Shown: in pieces, positions 4,168 through 60,350 of the stretch
Position numbering within the stretch: position 1 is the stretch's first letter
How the letters are laid out: every line of letters starts with the position of its first letter
From: Eledone cirrhosa
Taxonomy: Eukaryota
Reading direction: 5' to 3'
Assembly (NCBI GenBank): GCA_964016885.1
Contig: OZ024748.1
Coordinates: forward strand, 58,342,001 to 58,406,000
DNA length: 64,000 nt
Made by a program: the position numbers and the translations under genes
The notes under the pieces: generated by a model
Told to the model about the DNA's origin: nothing
Seen by the model: the letters and a program-made list of their open reading frames with translations, nothing else
Database searches by the model: none

Positions 4168-4233
4168 TATTTTATTATACATATTTCAGAAGTACTGAGC
4201 TATTTCATCAGTACGTCCTCATCAGATAAAATA
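4168..4233 (-). ncRNA. Type I hammerhead ribozyme (family H1)
   Basis: Minus strand: TATTTTAT-CTGATGA-GGACGTACTGA..TCAGTACTTCT-GAAA-TATGTA-TA-ATAAAATA; stem I and stem II pair. Confidence 0.8.
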
Positions 4234-4307: not shown

Positions 4308-4373
4308 TATTTTATCTGATGAGGACGTACTGATGAAATAGCTCAGTACCTCTGAAATATGTATAATAAAATA
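4308..4373 (+). ncRNA. Type I hammerhead ribozyme (family H1)
   Basis: CTGATGA 4316-4322, GTACTGA/TCAGTAC stem II, GAAA 4354-4357, quasi-palindromic stem III ATATGTAT, stem I TATTTTAT/ATAAAATA. Confidence 0.8.
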
Positions 4374-11356: not shown

Positions 11357-11864
11357 ACTTAATCAGAAGGAAATTCTAAAAAAATCTCGTAAAAGTCATT
11401 TTAATATGTTTAATAACATTTTGTTTTCAGTTTGAGCCTCTTCAATTACCTTACAATTATCCTTTTAGATAATCTCCATATTGAATTCATATTATATTTT
11501 CTCAATTTGAAGTTTTCAATTTTTATTTATATTTATTTTTAATTTTATTATATCAGTCCATACTATACATTTAAAAAAAAAAACAGAAATGTAACTGAAA
11601 TTCCTGGGGTTTTTTTAAAGTAGAAACAGAATATTTAATTTTCATAGACGTGAAATTCGTTCATATTTTCGCTACTATCTATCACTGTCACTTCATTTAT
11701 AATAATTTCTATCATAATAAAATCTGAATGTATGACTTTAGGGAGATATTTAGATATTGGAGCATTAAAGAGAGACAATCAGGCAATCATATAACTTTGA
11801 ATATAACCAGCTTTTTAAAAATCATTACTCACTTAGGAGTATGCGATACCTGCCAAAAAATTAT

Positions 11865-12050
11865 TCCTACTTTTGGCACAAGGCTAGCAATTATCCCAGT
11901 GTATTACTGGTGCTTTATTTTATCGACCCCGTAAGGATGAAAGGCAAAGTTAACCTCGGCGGGATTTGAACTCAGAAGATAAAGGGCCGTAACTCTTTTC
12001 TACAAAGCATGGCGTCTGAACCTCTACCGATACTGCCAATCCACCGCCTA
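11865..12050 (-). mobile_element. SINE copy
   Basis: Reverse complement of the 331-513 family. Confidence 0.85.
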
Positions 12051-12343
12051 AGAAAATAATGTTGATCATGCAATGTCTGAGATTAAATTTTATTCAATAT
12101 ATTTAAATTACTCACATAATCAATTAGCTTGTGATGTTTGTAAATGAGATACAGATTTCTGTCAATAGTATGAATAATTGATCAGCGGTCATAAAATAAT
12201 CGTTTTCACCACCATACACATATTGGTGTATTTGTACTTGCTTCAAATCATATTAATAAATTCGTTACGCCAAGTGTTATATGAAATGGTAACTACCCGC
12301 TGGAAATTAAATAGTTTAATTAGAAATAAGCACACTGACATTT

Positions 12344-21500: not shown

Positions 21501-21519
21501 TATATATAGTAATAATTGT

Positions 21520-21814
<295 letters not shown>

Positions 21815-22284: not shown

Positions 22285-22327
22285 ACGATGTACTAGTTTC
22301 AAGCTTATTAGCTATCGTCAGCATCGT
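22285..22327 (-). ncRNA. Type I hammerhead ribozyme (H3), intact core
   Basis: ACGATG-CTGACGA-T-AGCT-AATA-AGCT-T-GAAA-CTAG-TA-CATCGT; perfect 6-bp stem I, ACTAGT palindromic stem III. Confidence 0.9.
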
Positions 22328-22775: not shown

Positions 22776-22923
22776 ATACCTTCCTGCCAGATGGTTGAAC
22801 GTCTGAAAGTATATACTTTCCTTATGCATATTAACGGCTGAGCAGCCTAATTTGCATACATACTTACATTTAAGTGCCGTACTAAGAGTGAGAAATGAAA
22901 TTTCGTTTCATTCTATTCCATTT

Positions 22924-22954
<31 letters not shown>

Positions 22955-22979
22955 CATATACATATACATATATATATAC

Positions 22980-23028
<49 letters not shown>

Positions 23029-23046
23029 CATATATATATACATATA

Positions 23047-24615
23047 GACGAACTGGGCCTCCTACTTAGACTTACCTACGACACTGACTACCTAGACAGC
23101 CATGACCTTAGATGTTTCTGCCCTAGTAGACCTATAAGAGGTAGACCCCCCACCATAACCTCAATGGCTAAAAAGACTCCCATAGGAAGGTGGATTGGGT
23201 GGACCAAAGCTATACGGACCCCCCAAAACACTGATCAGGTAAGAAAAATGGTCGCACATGCAATAGGGGCTAGTATCAAAACTACCCTAAAGGGCCACAT
23301 ATTTAAGTTCAATGAGAAAATCTACACCCAAAATGAGGGAGCAGCCATCGGCGTCAGCATAGCTGGCGATGTTGCCAACCTTTTCATGGTATGGTGGGAA
23401 AGGAGACTTAAAGATCTCCTTAATGAAAGCTCCATAGACCTCATCATGTACTCTCGTTATGTAGACGATATCAATATAGTTATAAGAACACCCCCACTAG
23501 AGAGCACTAACAAGTTTGATTTAGAACGTAGCACGATGGAAAGCATCCAGCAGATAGCTAATTCCATACACCAGAGTATAACTGTAACTATAGACTTCCC
23601 TTCCAAACACCCTAACAATAGACTACCTGTATTAGACACAGAACTCTGGATTAACACTATAGACGAGAGAGCCCAAATTCTCCACTCACACTATGCTAAA
23701 CCCATGGCCTCCAAATACCTGATACTCAAAAACTCAGCAATGTCCAGTAGTGCTAAGTTTAATATTCTGATCGCAGATTTGGTACGAGTGATGAAGAATG
23801 TGTCCAGCATGTGCGACCCAACAGAAATGGAAGGACACATCCAACACTTCATCAACCGCATGCAGTTCTCTGGCTACAACCAAAGAGACAGAGTCAGAGT
23901 ATACGAAGGAGCCATGGAAAAGTATAAGACCCTCATAGAACTGGACATGAAAGGAATTTGCCCACTATACAGGAGCAAATCATGGAATAGCTTAGATAGG
24001 GCTAGACATAAGATAGGGAAGGCCACATCATGGTACGACAACCAGAGATATCAGAGTGTCATGTTTGTGGACGCCACCCCTGGAGGGAAATTAGCTAACC
24101 AGTGTAGAAAGGCCCTGAGAAAGACCCACTTAAAAATAAAGGTGGTAGAAAAGCCAGGAACCACCATAAAATCCCTGATCAGCAAAACCTACCCTTTTAA
24201 GAAAACCCACTGTACCAATAGGAAATGTATCATATGTAAGGTGAACCCCCGGATAAACTGTAAAACTAGAAACGTAGTCTATAGCATAAGATGTACAGAG
24301 GGTACTTGCAGAAACACGACAACAACATACATAGGTGAGACAGCTCGTAGCATAGGTGAAAGGATAGACCAACACTGGGGGGAACTAAAAGGACGAAAAA
24401 ACGGGTCAGTACTATACGAACATGCTAGACAACATCATGACGGTAACATAGACAACATAGAAATTAGAATAATATCTAAACATAGGAATGACCCAGCAGA
24501 TAGGCAAATCAGAGAGGCCAGTGAAATAGAAATTAGAAGACCAAAGCTAAACAGAAAGAATGAGTGGAACAACAACAACACCCAAACAAACAACACTGAC
24601 CTAAGAGAAGTATAA
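23047..24615 (+). CDS. Penelope-like reverse transcriptase + GIY-YIG endonuclease (N-truncated; the ORF-track start at 22852 is a microsatellite read-through artefact)
   Basis: QNEGAAIGVSIAG (motif B'), YSRYVDD, LPVLD, Cys cluster CTNRKCIIC..C, VVYSIRC..YIGETARSIGERIDQH, REASEI..PKLNRKNE; no stops over ~520 codons. Confidence 0.92.
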   Translation, partial: DELGLLLRLTYDTDYLDSHDLRCFCPSRPIRGRPPTITSMAKKTPIGRWIGWTKAIRTPQNTDQVRKMVAHAIGASIKTTLKGHIFKFNEKIYTQNEGAAIGVSIAGDVANLFMVWWERRLKDLLNESSIDLIMYSRYVDDINIVIRTPPLESTNKFDLERSTMESIQQIANSIHQSITVTIDFPSKHPNNRLPVLDTELWINTIDERAQILHSHYAKPMASKYLILKNSAMSSSAKFNILIADLVRVMKNVSSMCDPTEMEGHIQHFINRMQFSGYNQRDRVRVYEGAMEKYKTLIELDMKGICPLYRSKSWNSLDRARHKIGKATSWYDNQRYQSVMFVDATPGGKLANQCRKALRKTHLKIKVVEKPGTTIKSLISKTYPFKKTHCTNRKCIICKVNPRINCKTRNVVYSIRCTEGTCRNTTTTYIGETARSIGERIDQHWGELKGRKNGSVLYEHARQHHDGNIDNIEIRIISKHRNDPADRQIREASEIEIRRPKLNRKNEWNNNNTQTNNTDLREV

Positions 24616-26384: not shown

Positions 26385-26599
26385 CATTGGATATCAGTAA
26401 GAACATTTTTTTTATATCGATGTTTAACGGGCATCCACTGATGATTTATAAGTGCTCACCTGCATATATTCCTACGGACTATGTGTAGGCTTCTACATAA
26501 CCTGGACATAATTTTCCCAACTTGTAGAAAACTTATAATGAAACAATTGTTTGGAAAGGGAGATGTATTTTAATTATGTCTCATATAAAATAATACAAC

Positions 26600-28517
<1,918 letters not shown>

Positions 28518-30165: not shown

Positions 30166-31116
30166 TTTCTTTCACTTCCAATCTAACGTGATGTGTATAA
30201 ATTTGAATTGAAATATTTATGTAAATATTTATGTAAATATAAGTAAATTAATCAAATAAATAATGATAGATGGATTTGGGTGTAAAGTTCTCAAATTAAA
30301 ATATATTTTAATGAATGTGTGTTCTACAGAATGAAATGTGTTTGCTGTTTTAATAAATTAAGGCTAATCTATGAAGACTGGTTATAACCCGTCTTCATAC
30401 ATTAGCCTGAATTTATAATCCTGCTCATGAAATGATAATTATCAGAGTTCAATTTCCTAATTCAATACACCCGTAATGCTAACAATGCATGGGAATATTA
30501 GGCAGACCGACAAATAAAACGTTCGAAAGGAAATTGAGAACGAGAGTCATCTGCAATATGATTTCTTTGTTGAACAGTATTCATACACCGTATGTAATTA
30601 TGAATGTGTAAGGAAGTTAGATTTATTCATATCTAAAACACCCATCAATACGTCAGTAATCATCTCCATGTTAAAGCGATAAGAGAAAGCGTGAGAATAG
30701 ATTTCGTTGCCGCCCGATAGGGACTTGAAATCAGTATTTGTGCCATCCAGAGGGATAACGAAAACAGAGATATTGAATTTTATGAAATATTTCATTTATC
30801 GACAATGTGCTCTATTTCATAAGAAAATTGATAAATACACAACGAATGTATACGACGAAATAACTACCAGAAATCTGATAAATGCTACCATTATCTTTCC
30901 ATTCAAATGAATTTGTTCTATTTGTAATTTGTCGTGTCTCCCAAGTATTCCAAGTATTTGCTGATGTTACATTGATATGAATTAATCAAAATATCTAAAG
31001 GCAATCGATGAGAATTTTAGCGGATTAATTAAACCTCCAGCTGAAAGAATATTACGATGATGCTACTGCCGTTTGAAAATGATGGATGTCAACATACCAT
31101 ATTATTTAAGATATGT

Positions 31117-32790
31117 GCAGTGGATTGATAGTAAAAGTAGATCGTTAGACACCATGATTTGCAGCATAGAGTTACGCCCCATTTACGTTCTGAGTTCAAA
31201 TGACGCCAAGGTTAGATTTGCCTTTCATCCTTACGGGCTCGATAAAATAAAGCACCAGTAATAAACTGTGGTAATTGCTGGCCTTGTGCAAAAAGTAGAA
31301 ACAAGTTGTTACTTGATACTTTGACAGTGAGAACGAGCTAGGATGTAAACATACCTATTTCTCTGATAATATAGGCTGATATACCGGTAAACGTATCCAA
31401 AATTGAAACTACGAGTATGAAAAGCTCCATACGCTAAATAATTAAACCGCGGTATATAGTGTGGACTAGTGTGTATATGTAATTTCTCTTTCTCTCTATA
31501 CCACACACAAACACATTCTTATCATCCCTCTTTCATAAAGACATGATTCGACACCCACTCTCTCAAGGACACATGTTCAAAAATGCTAGTTTTGTTGCAA
31601 ATGCGGCTGAGTCCTATATACGAGACAGGTGAAATGAAATGAGTGATAATCGATTTTGTTGTGTACATAATAAAAAAAACATCATCTATTCATTGTAATG
31701 GTTATGATAGAGTATCATTACTTTATTATTATTATTATTTAGGGTGGTGGATTGACAGTATCGGTAGAGGGTCGGACGCCATGCTTTCCAGCATAGTTAC
31801 GCCCATTTATGGTCTGAGTTCAAATCCCGCCGAGGTTAACTTTGCCTTTCATCCTTAAGGGGTCGATAAAATAAAGTACCAGTCACACACTAGGGTTGAT
31901 TTAATCGAATTTCCCCTCACCTAAAATTGCTGGCCTTGTACCTATATAAGAAACCATTACTTCATTATTATTATGGCTATATATTTTTTGTTGTTGTTTT
32001 TTTTGTAGAGAAATAAGCGTTCTATTTTGTATTTAAAAATAAAATTATTATCATTACGTGAGCGAGTTCGGTGGGTTGGCAGTATCAGCAGAGCATCGGA
32101 TATGCTTTGTGGCATAGCGTTACATCCCTTTACGTTCAAATTCCACCGAGATTATCTTTGTTTGTTCATCCTTACGTGGTCGATAATATAATGTACCAGT
32201 AATACACTGGATTCAATTTTATTGAATTTCCTCCGCCCATCAAAATTACTGGCATTGTGCCTATAATAGAAATCATTATTATGTTAGTGAATAATAAAGT
32301 ACCAGTAATGCACTGGTTAATTGCTGGCCTTGTGCCAAAAATAGAAATAATTATTATGTTAGTGAATGGCGGTGAATTGGCAGTATCGGTAGAGGGTTGG
32401 ACGCCATGCTTTCAAGTATAGTTACATCCCTTTACAGTCTGAGTTCAAATTCCGCCGACGTTAACTTTGCCTTTCATCCTTACGGGGTCGATAAAATAAA
32501 GTACCAGTAATGTACTGGTAATTGCTGGCCTTGTGCATAAAATAGAAACAATTATTATGTTAGTGATTTCCCGTGGATTGGCAGTGTCGGTAGGGCGTCG
32601 GCCAACATGCTTCGTGGCATATTGTTACGTTCCTTTACGTTCGGCGTTCAGATCAGGACGAGGTTAGTTTTGTCTTTCATCCTTACGGGATCGACAACTG
32701 AAAGTATCAGTAACGTACTAAGGTCAATTAATCGACTGTTCACTTCCCCAATACTGTTGGACATTTGCCTAAATCAGAAACTATCATTAC
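31117..32790 (+). mobile_element. Cluster of SINE copies (31117-31310, 31742-31970, 32070-32282, 32295-32357 partial, 32368-32557, 32573-32790)
   Basis: Repeated family core, all in the same orientation. Confidence 0.9.
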
Positions 32791-33975: not shown

Positions 33976-34589
33976 TAATGTCAATAGCATATATGATATA
34001 AATACTCAAACCTGAAACTTGATTTTCATTAAAATATGAAAATAGAGACGAAATTTGAATGTAGATGGGTTATGAAAAGATGTGTAAATTTAGTGTAACG
34101 CTGAATACATGTATGAAACGCTTTTACGGATTAACCAAAGTTTTCTTTGCGTAAGTATTGATTTTCTATATAGACGCGTCTACATTTGGTTTGAAATTAT
34201 AAACTCGGCAATATGTAAGGCATTGTAATGTAATGCAAAACAATAAATGGTATTTAAACTCTTGCAAGTATTGTACTGAAACAATACGATGTGTGGTATG
34301 AAAGAGATACGATACAATGAACCAAATATAACTTTCAAAATATTCTAACTAAACTTTAAGAGTTTGTATAATACAAAGAGTTATTACTACAGGGAGGAGA
34401 GAAGACAAATACGTTATTCATGAATCTGAAAGTCAACGCACTGCTTACATTTCAATCCACAAAATGTAATGGAAAACAATTCTCTGCTAGACAAAAGTAC
34501 GAACTATACAATATTGTATAAATAGTATAATTTTTCAAACTTAGACACTATTAGCTTGAGTTATTTTTCAATTTGTATAGATTTAATTA

Positions 34590-34737
34590 TTATTGTTTCT
34601 ACTTTAGGCACAAGGTCAGCAATTAACCAGTGCATTACTGGTACTTTATTTTATCGACCCCGTAAGGATGAAAGGCAAAGTCAACCTCGCCGGGATTTGA
34701 ACTCAGATTGTAAAGGGACGTAACTATGCTGGAAAGA
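34590..34737 (-). mobile_element. 5'-truncated SINE copy with TSD
   Basis: Family core; AGATTTAATTAT on both sides. Confidence 0.85.
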
Positions 34738-36496: not shown

Positions 36497-36569
<73 letters not shown>

Positions 36570-36617
36570 TAATAAAATAATGAATAAACAAAGAAACAGT
36601 TCCTTATATTAAAAAAT

Positions 36618-36756
36618 TCATCATTTTACGATCGTTTCTAGGATATATATGTTAGTGTTTGTATGCATATCCTATAGATCTATGTAATATTTTTACAAAC
36701 TATCAGAGGGAATATACATACCTACACATATATATGCTGTCTTCAGAAATAATGAT
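36618..36756 (-). ncRNA. Type I hammerhead with ~100-nt stem II (H4)
   Basis: Reverse-complement copy of 36771-36909. Confidence 0.75.
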
Positions 36757-36770
36757 TTCAATAAACAAAT

Positions 36771-36909
36771 ATCATTATTTCTGAAGACAGCATATATATG
36801 TGTAGGTATGTATATTCCCTCTGATAGTTTGTAAAAATTTTACATAGATCTATAGGATATGCATACCAACACTAACATATATGTCCTAGAAACGATCGTA
36901 AAATGATGA
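36771..36909 (+). ncRNA. Type I hammerhead with ~100-nt stem II (H4)
   Basis: TCATTATTT-CTGAAGA(36781-87)-[101-nt hairpin]-GAAA(36889-92)-CGATCG-TA-AAATGATGA; stem III palindrome ACGATCGT. Confidence 0.8.
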
Positions 36910-37484
36910 ATTTTTTAATATAAGGAACTGTTTCTTTGTTTATTCATTATTTTATTAATTTATCTTGACTCTGTTTTCCGTTATTTTTCACCGAAAAAAT
37001 TTTTTAAATACATCTTCTCTTTTCATGATATTCGGATTACATTGAGTTCTTCATACGGATTGGACACTACCCTACATTTTGGTAGATTTATCTACATATA
37101 TATATATATATGTATATATATATGAAGTAATCCGTATTGTCAGTAATTCGGCCCACGTTCGATAAGTGCTGATTTCGATTCCCGTACAGGGGCTCTGGGT
37201 TATGCTCTACAGTAAACAGTTTACTTCACCTGGCTTCAATACAATCAGCTGGCAAAATAATTCCTCTATTTTCAAGGATCCTTGTCACACGTGTCATTCT
37301 GAATCTTCCGGAGAAATACTACATTGAGGGTGTAGCTGACTGTGGAATAGTCACTCACCTGTTAATTCCACGATCTGGCATTTCCATTGATTAAGTCAAC
37401 CGGTGGACTCATCGTCTGAAAGGACGCAGGTCAAACATATACCCCCCCTCTCTTCTCTCCACTGATTCTGCCTATCTCTATGTG

Positions 37485-40970: not shown

Positions 40971-41516
40971 ATCATGGGTGTTGTCACAAATAAAATGAAT
41001 TAGCTCCTGTCAATAATCGGAAGTGTATATTTAATGTATGTTGATAAAATCGTGAAACGTTGTTCAGTGTCACTCAGCTACATAGATTGTAAATGATCAA
41101 TTTGTTTACTAAGGATATTTGTATATCTGTGTAGATGTAAAAAGGACTTTTAACGCATTCAATTCGGACCAACGAAACTTGAGCACCCATTTGTGTTACA
41201 GTTGTAATTATATATATATATATATAGACACGATGATTAAAAATATAAATTAAATCGTAAATAAATACCTCTATAACGATATCACTAAGAGAATGTTTAA
41301 AGCGACCGTCCAAATACACGTGGGAGAGAGAAGTCACATCGTGTTTAAGGGCAGTGAACCAGTGGGCTCTGAGAGACGAGCTGCTAGAAAGGGCAGCCCA
41401 AAACCACTCAGAGAAGTCTGCTCAACCAAGGAGAGAGGAAAGAATGCTAATTCTCTTAGTGTTGTCTGAAATGTATAGCCTAACACACGCTGATGAACCG
41501 TGTTTTTCATTTCTGT

Positions 41517-41648
41517 CGGTGGATTGGCAGTATCGGTAGAGAGTCGGACGCCATGCTTTCCAGCATAGTTACGTCCCTTTACGGTCTGAGTTCAAATCCC
41601 GCTCAGGTTAACTTTGCCTTTCATCCTTACGGGGTCGATAAAATAAAT
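41517..41648 (+). mobile_element. SINE copy, 3'-truncated
   Basis: Family head and core. Confidence 0.85.
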
Positions 41649-43199
41649 AACAAGCTTCCTATACATAAAATCTGAAACTGTATTTCCATAAAATATACAT
41701 TATATAATAACGATGTTCAACGGTAGTGCAAGATTTGCTGTGAGTTGTCGGTTTTACTACCATAGAATTAGAGTGTATATATATTGACTGATTAATGGAC
41801 AAACCTGACTTTTACATTTAATTCTCAAATGTAAATTTCTCATTTTTTCTGCGAGACAGTGTGACGTTGAATCAGCTTAATTAACTTTAACTTATATGAA
41901 ATATAAAATGAATAAATATTTTGGTATGTCGTTTGAGATCTACCTAAATCATTCGCCAGTCAACCCGTTGAATGCTATTAATAATTTAGACAAATAATTT
42001 AGACAGAATTAATTGTGTCATGTTGTGGTCTTGTGTATTATGGGTTCAAATACGTGCATTTCATATAAAATCGCTACAAAGTAGATAACTATTAACAGCT
42101 AATTTTATTCTAACCATACTGAAATTGATAATACCGTAAATTTAGATACATATAGTTTTGTTACCGATGGTTCTAAATCGAATTTTACCTCACCACGTTA
42201 ATTGCATAAAGGTTATGTAATTACATTGCATTAAATATGGAAATACTAGTAATAATCAATAATCAATTGCATATTAACACCAATTTTGTACATTAGTATT
42301 TGCGGAGTTGATTAATATTAAATGAATAGCCTGTATGTTTTTTTTTGTTTCATTCTATCTATAGTTATATCTAAATTACCAGCTAGTTAAATAATCCATA
42401 TTTATTTTGCTGAAAATCTTAAGCCGTTTTCTAAATAAAATTATTTGCATTCATGAGAAATTACTGTTCAAATGGCATTTGCTTTATTCGATCCAGTAAA
42501 TATTTGAAAGCAGTAATGTGAAAGATATATATTTAATATATGTGAATGTCTGCATATAAGGAATTTCATGAAGCTTGAGTATTGAAATTTACAGTTGAAT
42601 GAAGATCTCCTTTTAAGCAAGTTCTCTTCAATCTGCTCCTGACGTGTGACAGAATTTTCTCAAAGGAGTTCTTGTTTGTCAGTGCTACGTATATCAACTC
42701 AAAGTAACTATATCTTTCTCGTATTATTGGTGACAGATTGGAACTCTGAATTGATTTCCAGAAGCTAAAATTAATCCAAAAGAGGTTGAAGTATAATATG
42801 TATTCACGAAATATGAAATACAGAAAAATGAAATTGATTCTGTATTCATGAAGTGCTATCACTGGAAGACATCATAGGAAAAGAATAACTGACGCAAAAC
42901 ACAAGTTTCCAGATTTTTCTTATATAGATATATATGTATGGTGGGGGGTGTAGATTCGCATAAAACTATTTTCTTCGTTGAAAATAGAATTCCTAATAAT
43001 ATATTTATTTCTATAAAAGACTAGAAACGTTGAATAGAATGTACAGTCTTTGTACGAAATCTCTGAAACCTACTTCATTTACTGAACTATCAACTTTGAT
43101 TTACATAACGTTCTGATGAATCCACCAATCCGTTCTAATATTTCATTTAGCAAAGTTGAAATTATGAATGGCACTATTGTCATTGAATTCATAGCAAAT

Positions 43200-43387
43200 A
43201 ATTGTTTCTACTTTTGGCACAAGGCCAGCAATTACCCAGTGTATTACTGGTACTTTATTTTATCGACCACATAAGGATGAAAGGCAAAGTTAACCTCGGT
43301 GGAATTTGAACTCAGAATGAAAAGGGCCGTAACTCTTTGCGTCAAAGCATGGCGTCCGACCCTCTACCGATACTACCAATCCACCGT
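43200..43387 (-). mobile_element. Full SINE copy with TSD
   Basis: TCATAGCAAATAAT on both sides. Confidence 0.9.
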
Positions 43388-44023
43388 CATAGCAAATAAT
43401 GTTGAAAGAAATGAGAGAATGCATCCAAGCTATACCGCTGATGAATGTGCTGTTAGCCCTTCACCTTAGTTTTAAAGTATAGTGAACTAAAGAGGAGGCA
43501 GAATATAACCAGTTTGAGAAATGTCTTTAGTTTCTAGATTTCCTCAATTTGCTTAACAAAGTAATATTTTCTGTGAAAAAATTAATCATTGAATTTTATT
43601 ACCAGAACTATAAGCAACATTGCGATAAATGATCCGTGAAATAAACCATGAAATTAACGATAAATGTATTCAATATTTAACTAGTGAAACATACTATGGT
43701 GGTTTTATCTATTGTTACATTATTTGCAAGAATTTCTCCAATTTACTGAAAACCGCGAATGTATAATTTCAGAGATATATATCAACATATTTTTTCAAAT
43801 GGAATATCATTGTAAAAGATGTAAGTTCAGAAATATTTACATCAGATTTATATGTGTTAAACTAAACCTGCTACCTATTTACTTAAATATATATTTGAAC
43901 GTGAAAACAACAAATAATGCTTTCATATGAGAAATTCTGACGAAACCTGATTGATCATAAAACAGAAGTAGCGACACAGAATAGAGAATATATGAATAGA
44001 AATTCAGAATCAAAATAAATAAT

Positions 44024-44146
44024 TGTTACTACTTTTGGCACAAGGCCAGCGATTATTCCAGTGTATTACTGGTACTTTATTTTATCGGCCCCATAAGGAT
44101 GAAAGGCAAAGTAAACCTCGGCGGGATTTGAACTCAGAATGGCAAG
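44024..44146 (-). mobile_element. 5'-truncated SINE with 17-bp TSD
   Basis: GAATCAAAATAAATAAT at 44007-44023 and 44147-44163. Confidence 0.9.
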
Positions 44147-44199
44147 GAATCAAAATAAATAATGCGCCAGCTTCAGTAATCAGATGAAGGGAGGTATGC

Positions 44200-45774: not shown

Positions 45775-46092
45775 TAACTATCTGGCAGGAAGGTTTACGT
45801 TGCTGACGATAGCTAACAAGCTTGAAACTAGTACAGCGTTCCTTTGGCAGTGTTGAACAAACGAGCAACGGTGGTTACTAGACACTACGACTTAATACGG
45901 GATGTTTGTTTACAAACACACCGAGCATTATAATAAATGTTTGGTGAATCCATACGTACATATATATATGTGTGCATGTATGTATATATACATACTACTG
46001 TACGTCTGTATACATATATGTATGTACGTATACATACTTATATTTAAGTAACAGCCGTACTAAGAGTGGGAAATGAAATTTCGTTTCATTTT
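45775..46092 (+). mobile_element. Partial single unit of retrozyme-like family H3 with an intact hammerhead (45797-45839)
   Basis: ACGTTG-CTGACGA-T-AGCT-AACA-AGCT-T-GAAA-CTAG-TA-CAGCGT. Confidence 0.85.
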
Positions 46093-46753: not shown

Positions 46754-48329
46754 ATATATATATACATATATATGATCTTCCTCTCATGAGAGACTAGGTA
46801 ATGTATCCTTCGATGTGAAGAATTAGAGTAAATATCTATTTCTTCTTGGCAGATAAGGTGATGGTACGTATATGTAAGTAAGTATGCGTAATATACATAT
46901 AGGTATATATATGTGTGTTTATATACATAGGCATACATATGCGAATGTGTTTATGTCTGTTTAATATGTGTTTGCGAGCGTAGTAAGCTACAAGACATAA
47001 TTTATTAGACATCACTGACAAACTGGAATACCGGAAGGCATTAGACAACATAATATTCCGATGTTCTTCTTTTGCAAGTCAACAATATTAATTAAGACTA
47101 TGAATCTCCAAATACACAAATCAGCTACGGTCAAGAATATACAGGAATGCAAATATGAAATAAACTATAACTATACAACTATAAATAGGAACATTCCATA
47201 TAGTATCAACTAATGTATTGCTTGCAAGGAAAACATGATAGGATTAATGTATATGAATAAAAGTTCTGCAAGGTAATATAGAAGTTTGTTTCAAAAAGTT
47301 ATAGATTAGAGTAATTAATAACTTGGAATATGTCTTTCTGTGCTTTAATATAAATATGTTCTTTCTGTAGAGATTAATGTTTTTTTTTGTGTGTGTATGT
47401 GTGTTCATTTATTTTCATGTCATTCTCAATGTATATTCCTCCTTTTCTCTAACTGTAACACAATCAATTTATGTTGTAGAAGTAGTTTTATTACGAACAT
47501 ATTTCTACTCTAGGATAAGTGCGATACTGTTTCTTTGACTTTGTTTTTATAGATTCAAATTAAAGTAAGACTAAATATTCATATTTGCTGAGAGCAAAGT
47601 CAAGTTGAAATATGTTTCATTCTTGATAATATCTGATTTTCAGGTAGTTATTTTTGTTATTTATTCTTGTTGTATAATTTATTTTGGTTTCTAACATGTA
47701 AGTAATTTTTCAAGAGGATTTTGTAAATTTCGCTGTGAATTTAGACTATGCAAATAAGAAATACATCGGATGGAAAGAATGTAAAAGTAAAATATTCAAG
47801 GTATTACAGATCATTGAATTATGTTTCAAAGTTTATTACTATTAATGATGTTAGGTTGAAGTATTTATATCCGATAAACCTTAACGTGGACAACTTCAAT
47901 ACAATTTAAATGCGTGTCTGTGTTTGTATGTACCCACCCACCCCTTTTTTGTCTTTTTTTGTCTTCTTTTCTTGAGTTTTTTCCTTCTAAAAATGTTTTA
48001 TTTCTAATTTATTGATACATTTTTATAAGTATGTCGAGATTGACACTTTCCTTTAATTACTATACTCCCTTACCTCTTTTACTTCCGCATCTAAATGTAA
48101 GTGTGTGTGGGCGTGTTTATGTGAGCGCCTCAATATTCATATACTTATGATGTATCTATTCCGTCTGTTGATTACAAACATACAGATACATTAGCCCTAA
48201 ATTTTAGATTTACACACACTTTTCACTATACGTATACATATGAGCATACACATATATGCACATCTGTGGGCGTATTTACATACATATACACACACCTAAC
48301 TATATTTTCTTCATGAATTTCAATCTCTA

Positions 48330-48602
48330 TTTCATTGGTCTATTCAAAATCTGTTCCCAAACAGACCTATTGTATTGAAATGTTGTTATTATCAATAAAC
48401 AAGCATCATTATTTCTGAAGACAGCATATATATGTGAAGGTATGTATATTCCCTCTGATAGTTTGTATAATTTTGTACATAGATCTCTTGAATATGCATA
48501 CCAATTCTAACACATATATGTCCTAGAAACAATCGTAAAATAATGAACTTTTTTGTTTAATATAAGGAACTGTTTCTTTGTTTATTCATTATTTTTTTAA
48601 TA

Positions 48603-48605: not shown

Positions 48606-50101
<1,496 letters not shown>

Positions 50102-50207
50102 AGTTTGTAGGACTGGAGTATACATAATATAAGATCATAATATATAATCTCAGAGCTTTCACTTCAATTTATTATAAAGAATCTTGCTAAACAAATTCAG
50201 AAACGAA

Positions 50208-50242
<35 letters not shown>

Positions 50243-50282
50243 TATACATATATATATATATATGTATGTATATGTGTATATG

Positions 50283-50333
<51 letters not shown>

Positions 50334-50968: not shown

Positions 50969-51715
50969 CATACATACGTATATATACAACTTGAATTTGA
51001 GCCAACTTGAATAATCTGCTGAATCGGGACTGACTTGAAATTACACGAGAGCAATAACAAACGTAATCTGGAATTTATTTGTTGCTTAATCGTTCTAAAT
51101 TACTATTTAAGTGAAAATATATAATTTGATAATTATTGAAATTGCGTGACTCATGCAACATTTTAATAAGTCGGTATAACCTTTAAACCAGATGCTTCCA
51201 TTTGTCCAATGCTATAAGTTGTAAATAACGGAATGTTTGTATCTAAATATGCTCGATGTAGAAAAGAATTCAATTAACGAGAAGCATCTCAACTTTATAG
51301 TTTTCAATTAGCTATCATTCACTAACATAAAATCATGTAATTACTTCGAAGGTAAATGTTGCTTAGATATTGCATTTTATTTTGTTCATGTAATTTGGAA
51401 ATCGTACAGCAATTAAATTCTTATGTACATAATTGGATGTAAATAATCAAGAAATAAATTAAGAGTCGTTGTATCTAAATACTCGTTCGTTCCTTAAATA
51501 AAAAACAACAATATTTACATTTCGATCTGTAGCTGGTTCAGAATGCTAAAGATAGATTTATTTCGGAAGTAGAAACACTTTGCTTGTATAAGATATTTTT
51601 ACATTGATCGAACCACTCTGATGTAAACAAGAGTAAATAGGAGATTCAAGTATGTGGAAGCGCAATCTTACTACAATATACCCAGCTAAATATGCGTAAA
51701 ATAGTAAGTATATAA

Positions 51716-52078
51716 ATGTTTCTACTTTTGGCACAAAGCCAATAATTCCCCCATTGCATTACTGGTGCCTTATTTTATTGATCTCGTAAGGATGAAAGGT
51801 AAAGTTAACTTGACCTAGGTAGGATTTGTACTCAACGTAAACGACCATAACTCTATGCGCAAAGCATGGTGTCTGACGCTCTACCGATACTGCAAATAAT
51901 TGTTTCTACTTTCGGCACAAGGCCAGCAATTATGCCAGTAAATTACTGGTACTTTATTTTATAGACCCCGTAAGGATGAAAGGCAAAGTTGACCTCGGCG
52001 GGATTTGAACCCATAACATAAAGGGCCGCAACTCTATGCTGCACAGCATTGTGTCCGACGCTCTACCGATACTGCCAA
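51716..52078 (-). mobile_element. Two tandem SINE copies (51716-51895, 51897-52078)
   Basis: Family core occurs twice. Confidence 0.85.
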
Positions 52079-55000
52079 TGTAATAAATGGGTGATAATTT
52101 CCAGAACGCCTGTACAATGTGGTAGAAATAAATAAGGGGCAAACGATGACGAAAGAAGCAAAGAAATGATTTACCCAATATAATTCAACATATTTCAGGG
52201 CTAAAGCCCATATTGAGATCTAAAGACGGGAACGGTTAAAAAAAAAGACTGGTTAATGTGTCTCATATACGCATGCGGGGAGCTGTTATGTTAGGCACTC
52301 TGCTCCCCGCATTTCTAATCTGGTGTTCAACTATATAGTGTAACGCATTTTCTTCCATTTTATGATATTCCGATGTGTCAGTCTACACTAAATTTAATAT
52401 GAATTTCATTCCCAAAAGAAATATTTGTTATACTTGTGTACTCCAATATGTGTATGGTCAGATGGATTTCTTGCGGTTTAGAGTTTATATTATTAATATT
52501 ATTTCTTGTATTGAACACTTTTTCTTCAATGTTATCAGCACGATTCTCTACATAGCCATGATTTTATTTGCCTTCAAAATCCCAGTCTTTGCTACAAATA
52601 TTACGGCTTCGTCTACCGAAATTGTATGTTTGCAGGAAATAGACACTTTTGAGATTGTCTTTTGAAAATCAATAATCTGTAAACTTTATTCGTTGTCCAC
52701 AGTGCTAGAAATATATCTATTTATCTTCCAAATATCAGCGATTTCTTTAGAAGTTAGTTTCACATCTAACAGCGTATTATAATGAGGTAAGTATTCTTGC
52801 AATCAATTTTATACACATTTCATGTTATAAAATACTGCCTAAACAGAGGGAGAGTTCTGTTCCTATGTGAAAAGGCATATTTATGTTCTATCGGAAATGC
52901 ATACAGTGATGTCTTTCATCTTTATATATATACTTTGGAAATGTACAAATCTAATACTAGATGAAAATGCTCCTAATGCAGAGAATACTTTAGCTTAGTA
53001 GATAAATCATGGTGATTATTCTTCTGAAAAGCATGATTTCAGTGAACCATTCAATACGTAATACCTATTTAGTGTTCTAACATGATACATTTATTCCGAG
53101 AATATCCGGTAGAATGTGAGGTAGTTACTCATCTTTACATAACTAAACGTCAGTGAAATATTTATCAGTTGTAAATAATAACATTTCCAATTTCAAATGC
53201 AAAAACGACAAACTATAAGTTTGGCCAAAGGCATTGTGAATTGCTATATACGTATAAGAATCACGTCCTCTTATTTCATAGGAATATTTTCATGTTTTTA
53301 TTCTCAAAATGGGGAATTTTACCAGCTACTCATTGTGAAATATTTTCTATCGACTTTGATATCAATATTTTCAAAGCGAAATGCTACATTGCATATATAT
53401 TTCCAAAATGAGAACGTATAAAAATTATTGTTCTAAATAAATGGACTGAAAAATAGACAAGCTTTATATGAAAGGGCATGATGTTTGAATACGTATAAAA
53501 CTCACGTATATTTAAGTGGCGTGTAACCATATGTTTCCTTTATGATATGAAATATATACAGATTTATGTTAATAATAAGATGTTATTGAGATTTTAACAG
53601 TATTACATTTGTGAAATTACCATATCTCAACCATGATAAATGTTATATAATGCAAAAATATTATGAAGCGTTCGATATTACTTTACAGATAAATATACCC
53701 AAGTAAGTAACAAAATAACTATAACCATGCATATATTAAGTTAGAGAAAATAAATTGTAACAGTAGGAAATACAAACTGTATTAAAAGAATGTATAGACA
53801 CTTTCGAACAAAATAGTCTTGATAAAATCCTGAGAGTTTTCCGTAGGTAGAAGTCAGTATTACAACACTAAACAAATGTGATTAGATTTTAATTTTAGTT
53901 GTGCAACACAAATAACCATTCACCAAGTAGCATTTTGGGTTTAAAGGACAGAGGAATATCTATGTATGAGCTGGCCAGCCGCAGGTGTGAGCCTCATGAG
54001 ATGGAATGGCTCTTCCCTTACCTGGAAACGCCGGGGCTGTGGGTCGGCCAGCACGTGGGCCCCATTTTCTCATAATACAGAGAGATAGGGTAGGTGAGAG
54101 AGATGGAGGTGATGACAGTGGAAGTTCAGTTCTTCCGTGTTCGGAAACATTTGTCAAACTGTAGGTTTTATGAAGCAATTGTACCATAAATTAAACAAGT
54201 CATTTACTTTATTTACATTGCTGAACACATATAGTAGAAACATTTTGTATTATTCGAACAATGCCTTAGGGAACAAAAAACAGATTTTCCTTCCATCTCC
54301 TAGCATAGCGAATCGCAATAGACGGCGTCTGACATATTGTTGTTATTAATTAAAACATTATATTGATTAGCTGTTAAAATGACATCTGGTAAAACAGAGA
54401 GAATTGAGTGTGGAATAAATGAAATTAAGGAAGACGAGGAAAATGATTTATACTTAGGGATATACAAGTTATTGTAAAGATTTCATATTAAATGTCTGTG
54501 GGTAGCAATGTGTGTAATTTAGTTATGAGAATATCGATTTAGTAAATGCGTGTTTGTATTGATTTATATGAAGGAAATATGCTGGTAATAGGAGTGTCTG
54601 GATGCTGATCGTTAGTGTAAGTGTTGTCTGAGGTATAAATTTGATGTATGGATGATTTGTTGTACTGAACGGGGAATAAAACCCATAATAAAGAATAAAA
54701 ATCTCTCCCTATGTATCAGCATATAAATGTATATATAATTTAATTTTAGGTTTAATCAAATTGTATAGATGATCTTTCTCAGTAAAAGCTCAATAAAGAT
54801 AAATTCAAAGGATCAATGATATCATTTAATATTTATACATATATAACATATACAACTTTATGTGCTAAATAAAAACATTACTCACATGACGATTGTGTTA
54901 TATTTAAACGTTAGTACTTCGAAGTGTGACCATCCAATCATAGACAACATCGATCACCAATTATCGAATTAAAGTGATGCTCAATGAAGACCGTGAAACT

Positions 55001-56426: not shown

Positions 56427-57272
56427 CATATTTAAGTATGTGCCGTACTAAGAGTGAGAAATGAAATTTCGTTTTCATTTTATTTCAACTTATCGTTTTC
56501 GGTATGCCTGACCGACTTAGCTCACTCGATATGCAAATTAGGCTGCTAAGCTGTTAATTCTCATAAGGAAAGTATATACTTTCGAACGTTCAACTATCTG
56601 GCAGATGGGTATACGGTGCTGATGATAGCTAACAAGCTTGAAACTAGTACATCGTTCCTGTGTCAGTGTTGAACAAAAAGGTGACATGGTTGCCTTAACA
56701 CCGTACGGCAAAACATTCAGGCTGTTCAGTTTGTTTACAAACGAACAAAACGGCGTTATAATAAGCGTCCGCTAAACTGATACGTGCATATATGTATGTG
56801 TACCTGTATGTATATGTATATATATATATATATGTGCATGCTACTGTACGTCTGTATACATATATGTATGGACGTATACACACATACTTACATTTAAGTA
56901 AGTGCCGTACTAAGAGTGAGAAATGAAATTTCGTTTTCATTTTATTTCAACTTATCGTTTTCAGTATGCCTGACCGACATAGCTCACTCGATATGCAAAT
57001 TAGGCTGCTAAGCCGTTAATTTTCATAAGGAAAGTATATACTTTCGAACGTTCAACTATCTGGCAGATGGGTATACGGTGCTGATGATAGCTAACAAGCT
57101 TGAAACTAGTACATCGTTCCTGTGTCAGTGTTGAACAAAAAGGTGACATGGTTGCCTTAACACCGTACGGCATAAAATTCAGGCTGTTCAGTTTGTTTAC
57201 AAACGAACAAAGCGGCGTTATAATAAGCGTCCGCTAAACTGATACGTGCATATATGTATGTGTACCTGTATG

Positions 57273-57362: not shown

Positions 57363-57635
57363 CATATATATATATACATATTTATATATATATATTTATA
57401 TATATATATATATACATATTTATATATATATATTTATATATATATATATATACATATTTATATATATATATACATATTTATATATACATATTTATATATA
57501 TATATATATATACATATTTATATATATATATATATACATATTTATATATATATATATACATATTTATATATATATATATACATATTTACATATATATATA
57601 TATTTATACATATATATATATATATATATATATGT

Positions 57636-59270
57636 AGATAAATCTACCAAAATGTACGGCAGTGTCCAATGCGTATGAAGAACTCAATGTAATCCGAATA
57701 TCATGAAAAGAGAAGATGTATTTAAAAATCTTTTTCCGATGAAAAATACAGGATAACAGAGTCAAGATAAATTAATAAAAATAATGAATAAAAACAAAGA
57801 AACAGTTCCTTATATTAAAAAATTCATCATTTTACGATCGTTTCTAGGATATATATGTTTGTGTTGGTATGTATATCATCTAGATCTATGTAACATTTTT
57901 ACAAACTATCAGAGGGAATATACATACCTACACATATATATCCTGTCTTCAGAAATAATGATATTTGTTTATTGAAAAAAAAACAACAAAGATTTAATAT
58001 AATAGGTCTGTTTAGGAACAGGTTTTGAATTGACCAATAGAAGGGTAGTAAATGGTCAAGATGGTAAAATAGTAGTAATAGAACTTTACTTTAGGGGTAG
58101 AGGAAGGCAGATTTCAGTTTTGAATGGAAAGAGTATGATGAATGAAAAGATTATTTTAGGGATGAAAATAGGTCAAGTCTGTAAAAGGTACACGAAAAAT
58201 TGATGTTATAAAAGAATAATGCCAATGTAAATATCTAAGGAGAATAAAATTTTACGATAAATGTGTTAGTGAAAAATATCAATCTTATTTAAAATATAGG
58301 GAATTTACATCTATAAAAAGAAAATAAATTAATTAAATTCATAGGTATATTTATATTGATAAATTTATATTAATGCATATAGATATGATAAATAAGAGTT
58401 AGATGTAATTGAAGAGTGTTGCTAAAAACGAAGGGAAAATAAAAAATAATGATTATTATTATTGGGGGGGGAGGTAAATTTATTAGTGAGAAATAACAAA
58501 TTTATATAGATTATAAGGAACATAGAATCATAACCTGAAATTAAAATAGTTTATATGTATACTTAATGGTATAAATTTTAGGAAAAATAGCTGTAAAGGG
58601 AAATAAAATTATGTAGTTCATTAGTAGTAGAATATTAATTATAGGTTAACTAATTTAAAAAAAGTGTTATTATAATAATTTCTAAAGTGTATATTAATTA
58701 GGTTTATAATATTTAAAAGTTCTTCTCAGTTTATGATTACATGATATAATTAATTCCTGTCGTTTATTTAATAGGATATCCTTAGATTTCATTATTTCAA
58801 AAAGTTCCTGGGAACATAATCTACATTCATATCTATTATTTTGTTATCTATTATTATGACCTGACCCTTTTGAGCACACTCCAGGTCAGGGCATAATCTA
58901 TATTCCTCTTTCTATAATTATTAATTATTTCAGCTAAAGATGTTGTATTAGCTAATGCGGCATTTTTAAAACTGTGTTTGTGGGTATTAAATCTTCCTTT
59001 AAATTGGTTAGAAGTAGCTCCTATATATGAATAAATTGAGTCCTTAGTGTTAACTTTACATTTATATAATATGTTATTAATAAGGCAATTTCCTTTTAAT
59101 GGGCAATTTGCTTTGTTTCTAGAGTTACAACCTTTCGTGAATGCTGTATCAGAGGAGATAGTCAAATTAGGTGTGGAATTTTCACGGCTTGTTGTATGTG
59201 AATGAGACGGTGGTTTGCTGTGGTTTATTTTAATATTATGGTTAGTTTGATGTATTGGTGGTATATTCAT
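57636..59270 (-). mobile_element. 3' end of a second Penelope-like element: GIY-YIG remnant, ~1 kb 3' UTR and pLTR with hammerhead (57824-57962)
   Basis: CNSRNKANCPLKGNC..ILYKC..YIGATSNQFKGRFNTHKHSF..W, then after a frameshift CRLCSQE..LLNKRQELIISCNH (stop at ~58694); H4 hammerhead on the same strand. Confidence 0.88.
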
Positions 59271-60350
59271 GTTTTTTTTACATTTACAACAAAATATAAG
59301 TGCCTATAAGTGCCTATATTACAGATGTCAGTTCTATATTAAACATGATATATATAGAATTATGTTCATTCAACCTATATGAGTAATTACTTTAGGATAT
59401 TAGCAAATCTAATTTCTATGAAATCTAATTGTTAGAATCACCCAATATTGTTTCGGTGATTCTTATCAATTACGTCTTCCTAATGAAAAGATAAGTATAC
59501 TGCTAAAATATACTTAATTATGTAGTGCTAATAATTATGTTTGCATATAATCTTTTGTTTAGTTACTGTTTAAACTTTATAAACGTTCGCATGCCATTAG
59601 AAAATAAATATTTATACACGGTCATAAGGTTAAATACACGCTACGGATACGTAAATTATAGAAATTGACCATTTTCAAATCAAATTGGTCCATTTAATCG
59701 GTATTTATCTCTATAAATTGTAATGATAATTGTATGATAGATAATTATAACTCGAGATAAGGCAGTGGTGTATAGAAATAGAATCATCCTCCCTTGAATT
59801 ATGACTTGAACTTCTCCCAGTAAGAGGTATACCATTTCTTTCCAAATCATGTTAAATATTAATGAGAAAGTTATTAGCATATCGATCAATGCGGTACATA
59901 TCTGTATCCTTAGCGGCCTAAGCATGACAAAAATATCCGGGGTTTACTGATTGCTTGATATATATCCGCTCTGATATCTCAGTCTATTCAAATGCATACA
60001 TAGAACCGTAATTCCTGAGGGATTCGTAGGGACGCCATATTTACATACAGCGTTTCTGAAGCATTCTTAAACCTGGCAGATACCATCTCCTCTCCTGGTC
60101 AGAATACAGAAGATTTCTTCCAGAAGAGTTTAGAGAATAAGAGTAAGGAACTGGGAAAGATATATTGAGGAGGAATTGACCCTGCACTAGGCTGGTACTT
60201 TACTATCACCTTTATGTTATAGAATCGATTTGATTCGAGCTATTTTTAATAGCAAAAGTAAATAAGTTTATACATATATATATACTGAAGTAAGAGTTAA
60301 GTGAAATTAACCAAGAGTAAGAGCACTCAGTCCATAGGACGAGTTTAGTA

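Follow-up and report, generated by a model that had tools for sequence, protein, structure and literature searches.

A hammerhead motif with a stem II of about 100 nucleotides in a Hydra-clade Penelope-like element of Eledone cirrhosa

The window, the whole stretch of 64,000 nucleotides that was analysed, comes from an AT-rich genome of 3.0 Gb and carries on its forward strand a type I hammerhead motif, read from the sequence from stem I to stem I at 36772-36909, with a stem II of 101 nt. The motif lies in the pseudo-LTR (pLTR) of a Penelope-like retrotransposon of the Hydra clade. In the reading preferred here, which is given a probability of about 0.6, the hammerhead cuts, albeit slowly, as a dimer or with the help of a protein, and the long arm is a selected structure with a tip that docks a protein. 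What is new is a structural variant of the Hydra-clade hammerhead; the biology of hammerheads at transposon ends was already known.

The hammerhead and its copies in the window

Hammerhead positions are numbered by convention (C3, G8, A9, G12, etc.). The motif is composed of the following parts:

36772-36780 (+): stem I, 5' strand, TCATTATTT, pairing with 36901-36909
36781-36787 (+): core box 1, CTGAAGA (C3-U4-G5-A6-A7-G8-A9)
36788-36888 (+): stem II, 101 nt, with C10.A11, 2 pairs, a C.C mismatch and about 33 pairs in four helices
36822-36850 (+): distal module of stem II, GAU/AUC and UGUA/UACA helices with a 4x3 internal loop between them
36889-36900 (+): core box 2 GAAA (36889-36892), stem III and GUA (36898-36900), in the order GAAA, CGATCG, TA
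36892-36899 (+): stem III palindrome, ACGATCGT
36901-36909 (+): stem I, 3' strand, AAATGATGA, pairing with 36772-36780

The NUH triplet and the CUGANGA and GAAA boxes of a type I hammerhead are present, and the constrained fold and the family covariation described below both place three helices around the core, with an open stem I. The original prediction had put CTGAAGA 101 nt away from GAAA, joined by a long imperfect hairpin, with a 9-bp stem I. The spacing is as predicted, stem I (TCATTATTT/AAATGATGA) has its nine pairs, one of which is G.U, and the helices named for the hairpin are present, the four copies in the window all folding better than their shuffles (z -4.27, -4.03, -5.71 and -3.53). 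Forcing these copies into the hammerhead shape costs 1.2, 1.7, 1.1 and 3.0 kcal/mol relative to the fold of minimum energy, and the longest unbroken helix in the arm is about 13 bp. The stem III palindrome, described as perfect, is so at 36892-36899 and is broken (ACAATCGT) in the copy with its core at 48415, which lacks the palindromic self-pairing of stem III. In the monomer stem III has only 2 pairs; the self-duplex of the palindrome (ACGAUCGU) amounts to -10 kcal/mol.

At the foot of stem II, the G10.1-C11.1 closing pair is replaced in all three families that carry the arm (see below) by C10 opposite A11, which do not pair, followed by the two pairs and the C.C mismatch. This non-canonical C10.A11 may reduce hammerhead activity. 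A loop I-loop II contact of the usual kind cannot be made, since about 35 pairs separate loop II from the core; a substitute tertiary contact at the conserved C.C mismatch is a guess. Cleavage is predicted after the GUA at 36900 and, judged from the sequence, is quite probable.

Four copies had been listed originally. The three others in the window, with cores at 36746 (-), 48415 (+) and 57952 (-), are real, and the genome total is far larger (at least 3,704). The insertions concerned are given below, together with a fifth long-armed hammerhead:

36564-36756 (-): inverted 5'-truncated copy with a short (63-nt) tail and a (TA)n end; hammerhead core at 36746
36756-37096 (+): 5'-truncated pseudo-LTR copy with a long (195-nt) tail and a (TA)n end
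48299-48601 (+): copy from a different subfamily, with 85% identity to the full element L032; hammerhead 48406-48546
57635-59303 (-): 5'-truncated element with a broken GIY-YIG end (59285-58697), 3' UTR and hammerhead (57961-57824)
26438-26551 (+): long-stem-II hammerhead of another family, the fifth in the window; 95 nt, branched

The first two form a single insertion (36564-37096) of two 5'-truncated copies that face away from each other, an inverted pair of 193 bp with 3 mismatches, a 14-nt spacer and (TA)n at both ends. Back-to-back truncated copies ending in (TA)n are a known arrangement for Penelope-like elements (PMC8557442). The 36746 copy has its 5' end cut off, leaving 7 stem I pairs. 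Stem II of the 48415 copy measures 104 nt, and the 57952 hammerhead lies downstream of the broken GIY-YIG end, in an element whose long tail runs into (TA)n. The stem II at 26438-26551 consists of two hairpins on one basal helix. A (TA)n tract lies about 190 nt downstream of this hammerhead. The type is very common in the genome, where tandem copies often lie about 0.7-1 kb from one another, and its TACATA..TTGTA loop is similar to the distal module listed above with the order flipped.

Other hammerheads and repeats were noted in the window. An inverted pair of another family, with a 31-nt stem II and an 8-bp stem I, is found at 4176-4225 (-) and 4316-4365 (+). Short hammerheads with a 14-nt stem II and a U.U foot lie at 22291-22321 (-) and at 45803-45833, 56619-56649 and 57081-57111 (+), in a repeat of units of about 450 bp that are either retrozyme-like or tandem pLTRs. 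A SINE-like dispersed repeat of about 190 bp, with copies 80-90% identical, occurs at 330-512, 11854-12065, 21510-21702, 31101-31304, 32366-32558, 34581-34736, 41514-41647, 43194-43405, 44017-44147 and 51712-52079. Two (TA)n-rich tracts of 1.7-1.8 kb (26737-28515 and 48608-50332) adjoin hammerhead-bearing insertions.

The host element and the ends of its copies

Ten 9-kb stretches around near-identical copies were examined for full elements. Elements with a pLTR-ORF-pLTR organization (hammerhead, RT-EN ORF, hammerhead) were found at L032, L090 and, for a sister family, L156. In L032 the cut sites are at 3171 and 7104, and the ATG follows the first of these by 344 nt; L090 and L091 contain open frames of 830 and 808 codons. 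The single ORF encodes an RT followed by a C-terminal GIY-YIG domain (YRDD, IVY..YIG), as in the Hydra clade. It carries RWR, DKT, MGSxDSA, YRDD and a CxCX5C linker (CNCRNKANC), and its endonuclease has one Cys between IVY and YIG, a CxxC (CRLC) and a CxH (CNH), with no CCHH. The motif list given for the Hydra clade comprises a CxCX5C linker, RWK-like and DKT motifs, CxxC and CxH in the endonuclease and no CCHH (PMC8557442). On these ORF motifs the element is a member of the Hydra clade, and the insertion in (TA)n, the direct and inverted pLTRs and the one-sided tail are also those of that clade. The length of 3.9-4.1 kb between cut sites and the stem II of 97-110 nt depart from the typical Hydra size and short hammerhead, which are usual traits and not diagnostic ones. 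Atlas neighbours of the ORF at 0.96-0.98 carry GIY-YIG, RVT_1 or HTH_animal annotations on part of their members; the ORF itself was not recognised by Pfam or PDB, where it gave no match.

Assignment to the Neptune clade was rejected, as the CX2-5CxxC linker and CCHH of that clade are absent from the ORF and the Hydra motifs are present. The Neptune-clade linker and CCHH are found in an unrelated Penelope-like RT-EN ORF of the window (22807-24615, +), which has a CX4CxxC linker and two Cys inside GIY-YIG and whose relatives (L091, L096) have a hammerhead with an 18-nt stem II downstream. A non-LTR retrozyme identity was likewise rejected, since the copies are the 3' ends of coding elements and not short non-coding tandem repeats.

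Two further observations concern the structure of the copies. In most young copies, about 200 bp directly upstream of the hammerhead are duplicated in tandem (L032:6745-6975), and the first unit ends in a decayed box 1; the 57952 copy in the window lacks this duplication. At L036:1408-1742 (-), the long tail of a family A copy (see below) crosses a short (TA)n tract and continues as RT sequence from a different family of Hydra type (46% identical), which could be a nested insertion or a chimera.

The family of the 36772-36909 motif (family A) was searched in the genome with a pattern of both boxes exact and 88-113 nt between them. At least 3,704 matches were obtained, against 0 with the reversed pattern. 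The best 42 matches to the window copy are 98-100% identical, which indicates that the family is young. That the core boxes would be conserved across copies was thus foreseen correctly: C3 is changed in only 42 scattered copies of the family. In four cases a C3 mutation is common to both pLTRs of one insertion (G000 C1:151791920/151792965, C2:194750548/194754481, C7:85975784/85975918 and C8:42727675/42727808), so that both arms came from one cDNA or were homogenised later. Strongly shortened arms occur in 6 copies, each with its own deletion and none at the intron-like boundaries described below.

The ends of 87 distinct copies with enough flank were mapped. Their ends lie 55-75 nt past the cut site in 47/87 and 185-200 nt past it in 20/87 (together 67/87), with exact ends at 63 and 195 nt. 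Of the remainder, 15/87 end beyond 200 nt, as 5' pLTRs running into the ORF or as spurious (TA)n matches, 3/87 are intermediate, 1/87 ends at 53 nt and 1/87 has no alignable tail. As the copies extend past the cut, the RNA that was reverse-transcribed must have been uncut at the 3' hammerhead. In an element of Anolis, the RT initiates internally, at two positions of an uncut RNA, and the ribozyme needs protein in order to cut (PMC11167929); the copy ends at 63 and 195 nt match these internal starts.

The long arm in sister families and its possible roles

Two sister families, A' and A'', keep the long arm (97-110 nt over the families), with proteins 55-72% identical to that of family A. A' has 249 matches, with protein pieces that are 65-69% identical, and A'' has 140, with a full element and a protein of 55-72% identity:

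L156:313-4560 and L034:6410-6561 (-): A'' elements, U3-A8 core

When the arms of A, A' and A'' are read gap-free outward from the core, each has C.A, two pairs, C.C and then seven pairs, and 6 of the 9 paired positions next to the core differ on both sides between families. These two sister families settle the matter of selection for the proximal part of the arm. In A'', two stem I pairs are changed on both sides as well, and core box 1 reads UUGACAA, so that C3-G8, kept in A and A', has become U3-A8. This swap occurs naturally and is active in vitro (PMC3088659, PMC4209133). A CTGATGA ten bases downstream, in the 5' strand of stem II of A'', is a decoy and not its core.

Covariation across copies, put forward originally as a check, was found across the three families and not within family A. 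When 31 copies were aligned to a family A model, 23/44 pairs changed on both sides, and covariation reached 0.333, compared with 0.169 for shuffled (0/500) and at most 0.104 for slid alignments; this alignment is fitted to the structure and represents three related lineages, not 31 independent events. Most of the covariation is in the helix next to the core. Within family A alone, covariation is not above that of shuffles (1/44 pairs, 245/500), the copies being too alike for this comparison to be informative. Variants present in at least 4 copies break or keep the predicted pair in 6 and 4 cases, respectively, in A, and in 5 and 1 in A'; those that break a pair are mostly at helix ends and in the apical loop.

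The distal module behaves differently from the proximal helix. Among family majorities, grouped from 29/31 alignment rows, 21/24 of its columns are identical in the three families versus 11/35 in the proximal helix; in box 2, stem III and GUA (36889-36900) all 12/12 are. The module is thus nearly invariant where pairing alone would permit change, as would be expected of a binding site or a tertiary contact. The GA on both strands of the distal loop region (36823-36827 with 36850-36858) would, speculatively, suit a K-turn-like pattern, and does so better in A' than in A.

The preferred reading combines these features. The pLTR hammerhead would cut after 36900, since the boxes are intact and the U3-A8 change is covariant, and it would likely do so slowly. 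That it would need a dimer or the help of a protein is suggested by the palindromic stem III of two pairs and by published Penelope ribozymes. The arm is likely a selected structure, with the conserved tip at 36822-36850 docking a protein, since the distal loop is invariant in sequence and the proximal helix covaries freely; the element's own RT/endonuclease is the best guess for that protein. An RT-binding signal was among the roles originally proposed for the hairpin, and an RT- or protein-binding signal at the distal module would fit. Other long-armed families in the genome have no obvious distal module, which is a counterpoint to docking. The Hydra elements described in the literature have short arms and still transpose, so the clade in general can do without a long one. 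Cleavage does not generate the template's 3' end, since reverse transcription begins on uncut RNA at 63 or 195 nt beyond the cut site. It would more likely trim or destroy read-through and tandem transcripts, and the upstream hammerhead of a full element would cut 344 nt before the ATG.

The first alternative, that the long arm is a tolerated expansion, has perhaps one chance in five. The ribozyme would then require only the start of stem II, a few pairs long; the remainder would have no partner and would stay paired just so as not to disturb the core. Hammerheads accept varied stem lengths (PMC3088659), stem II lengths in unrelated sequences of this genome are continuous from 13 to about 110 nt, and the bulk of the covariation is near the core, all of which agree with it. 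Against it, no other part of the arm is as conserved in sequence as the distal module, in families with proteins of 55-72% identity, and arms that were shortened have not spread (6 unique copies versus 3,704), although deletions may simply be rare.

A somewhat more doubtful alternative is that the arm is a retained spliceosomal intron, of which the acceptor AG provides A11 and the catalytic G12 and the donor is hidden by the hairpin. The following stretch resembles the consensus for donor, branch point and acceptor:

36806-36889 (+): intron-like stretch, 84 nt, with AG|GTATGT at 36806, CTAAC at 36872 and a TAG ending on G12

Among 72 distinct family A copies, AG|GTATGT is present in 63/72, TAG in 72/72 and CTAAC in 53/72, a set biased to near-identical copies in which 19/72 lack CTAAC. 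The three signals occur jointly in 14/20,000 shuffles, by criteria picked after the sequence was seen. Donor-like GTA, which A' and A'' have at the corresponding position, and YAG are found in all three families, whereas CTAAC is missing from 33/33 A' copies (0/33). A' moreover reads AC|GT, splicing would restore GAAA in A and destroy it in A', the pyrimidine tract is weak, and YAG follows in any case from R-Y pairing plus A11-G12. Other long-armed families read AAT, CTG or GAA ahead of GAAA. No intron-less genomic copy was seen among the short-gap matches, which is expected under either view, and contigs of 4 runs of one study, none of them listed as RNA, contained no 36805-36890 joint (the donor region was skipped as repeat once). 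The pLTR of Penelope is described as having a 75-bp intron that ends at ribozyme helix I and is retained in genomic copies, and such a precedent favours an intron here. Under this improbable scenario the unspliced RNA would be the template and the spliced RNA, with the ribozyme rebuilt or dead, the mRNA; a hairpin that the element's protein, bound to the conserved tip, keeps closed would hide the donor, and splicing would switch between the two. If true, it would explain why Penelope-like elements keep introns, and the long-armed form would make up a large class of hammerheads so far overlooked, to which some elements now regarded as ribozyme-less may belong.

Three observations were made alongside. 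One low-depth X4 contig joins 36787 to 36888 with undetermined letters between and is likely of another family. At L035:7483-7555 and L119:1162-1232, stem II is 50-52 nt long and has intron-like ends (GTATGG or GTAAGG ... pyrimidines-CAG). L105 folds in a similar way to this L035/L119 family, without intron-like signals.

A Dicer/Drosha or ADAR substrate tied to host small-RNA silencing or editing, part of which had been proposed originally and which the roughly 35 bulged pairs, the size of a microRNA precursor, would suit, is very improbable: a sense-strand A>G excess is absent from the genomic copies, both in the 72 of family A (A>G 6 per 36 A, 0.17; T>C 10 per 36 T, 0.28) and in the 33 of A' (7 per 33 A, 0.21; 10 per 35 T, 0.29), the longest unbroken helix has only about 13 pairs, the would-be small-RNA arms are the sequences changing most between families, Rfam microRNA matches fall below threshold, most of them with the inverted junction at their centre, and the inverted pair (193 bp, 3 mismatches) is a far longer duplex and thus the better double-stranded substrate.

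Detection, known systems and significance

The expectation that such an architecture would be missed by standard descriptors was right. Rfam gave 0 matches in the window at gathering score and, at E<=10, 49 sub-threshold matches, mostly to microRNA families and none to a hammerhead family. The published descriptor for Penelope-like hammerheads allows a foot mismatch and has a stem II of 3-7 bp with a loop of 3-10 nt (PMC4209133). By these limits (stem II near 25 nt), about 10,000 pattern matches in the genome would be missed, a sum of 3,704 for family A and 4,716 and 2,049 for patterns with 82-112 and 47-77 nt, respectively, which overlap slightly (reversed controls 0, 30 and 82). For each non-A pattern 30 loci were folded, plus 20 more; they represent several unrelated families, including a branched 93-97 nt form (26438-26551 type) and an 83-nt form that follows another CxCX5C endonuclease (L127). 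The families with arms of 62-65 and 93-97 nt have no confident ORF assignment. As 19/30 folded loci of the 82-112 nt pattern have at least 4 unbroken stem I pairs and 11/30 do not, the count of 4,716 overstates the intact ribozymes; the A'' rows among these matches came via the wrong box, the decoy CTGATGA. The roughly 6,700 matches outside family A suggest that the genome holds further long-armed families. In a metagenome scan, 3 related loci turned up, of which 2 are near-identical; none has a hammerhead, and the 3' flank is short in each. No related locus was found in viral contigs.

The closest known relatives are the Hydra-clade hammerheads (Craig et al. 2021, PMC8557442), which are of type I, lie near the 3' end of RT + GIY-YIG elements, insert in (TA)n and have a short palindromic stem III, as here. 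The foot of stem II in the published Hydra rows has mostly one unpaired base on each side, mostly U.U, and C.A here. That a Penelope-type hammerhead with so long a stem II is unusual, as had been claimed, follows from all 26 Hydra rows of File S2, where at most 26 nt separate CUGANGA from GAAA, compared with 97-110 in the present families. Hydra elements are also generally under 3 kb (PMC8557442), versus about 3.9-4.1 kb between the two cut sites here.

The minimal hammerheads of metazoan Penelope-like elements (Cervera and de la Pena 2014, PMC4209133) share with the present ones their location in pLTRs, tandem and opposite-strand pairs, a weak palindromic helix III, the lack of a canonical loop-loop contact and, in Schistosoma, the U3-A8 variant found here in A''. 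Their helix II is 6-8 bp and their helix I 4-5 bp long, the latter being 9 bp here. The longest stem II among Penelope-like rows of File S2 is that of PLE-X1 of Selaginella, with two motifs marked as deviating and lengthened to about 48-54 nt, half the present length; this is a plant element of the endonuclease-less Chlamys type, for which neither covariation nor a role is known to be reported there (PMC8557442). In the Poseidon element PAc of Anolis (Frangieh et al. 2024, PMC11167929), two RT starts downstream of the hammerhead define the tail, as here; the element is of another clade, its short canonical stem II overlaps the start codon, and the tail is 30-40 bp in Penelope versus 132 nt here. 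Non-LTR retrozymes (PMC7229834; 10.64898/2026.07.22.740005) also have type I hammerheads in animal repeats and are likely derived from pLTRs. They are short non-coding tandem repeats (PMC7229834), and the present family has a coding, autonomous form. In the part of the literature searched, no hammerhead of a Penelope-like element was found to have a stem II of around 100 nt, an earlier mention being possible. The original prediction was correct in its reading of the motif and lacked the Hydra-clade placement, the arm in sister families and the splice-like signals.

Craig et al. list eight Naiad cases with a second box 35-50 nt away as 'half core' (PMC8557442), and some elements termed 'ribozyme-less' may have long arms too. 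Published accounts term the role that hammerheads play in Penelope-like elements unclear or a mystery. A conserved 100-nt arm would offer a handle on this role, as binding would be separable from catalysis, and the three natural covariant families would allow the arm to be trimmed and swapped.
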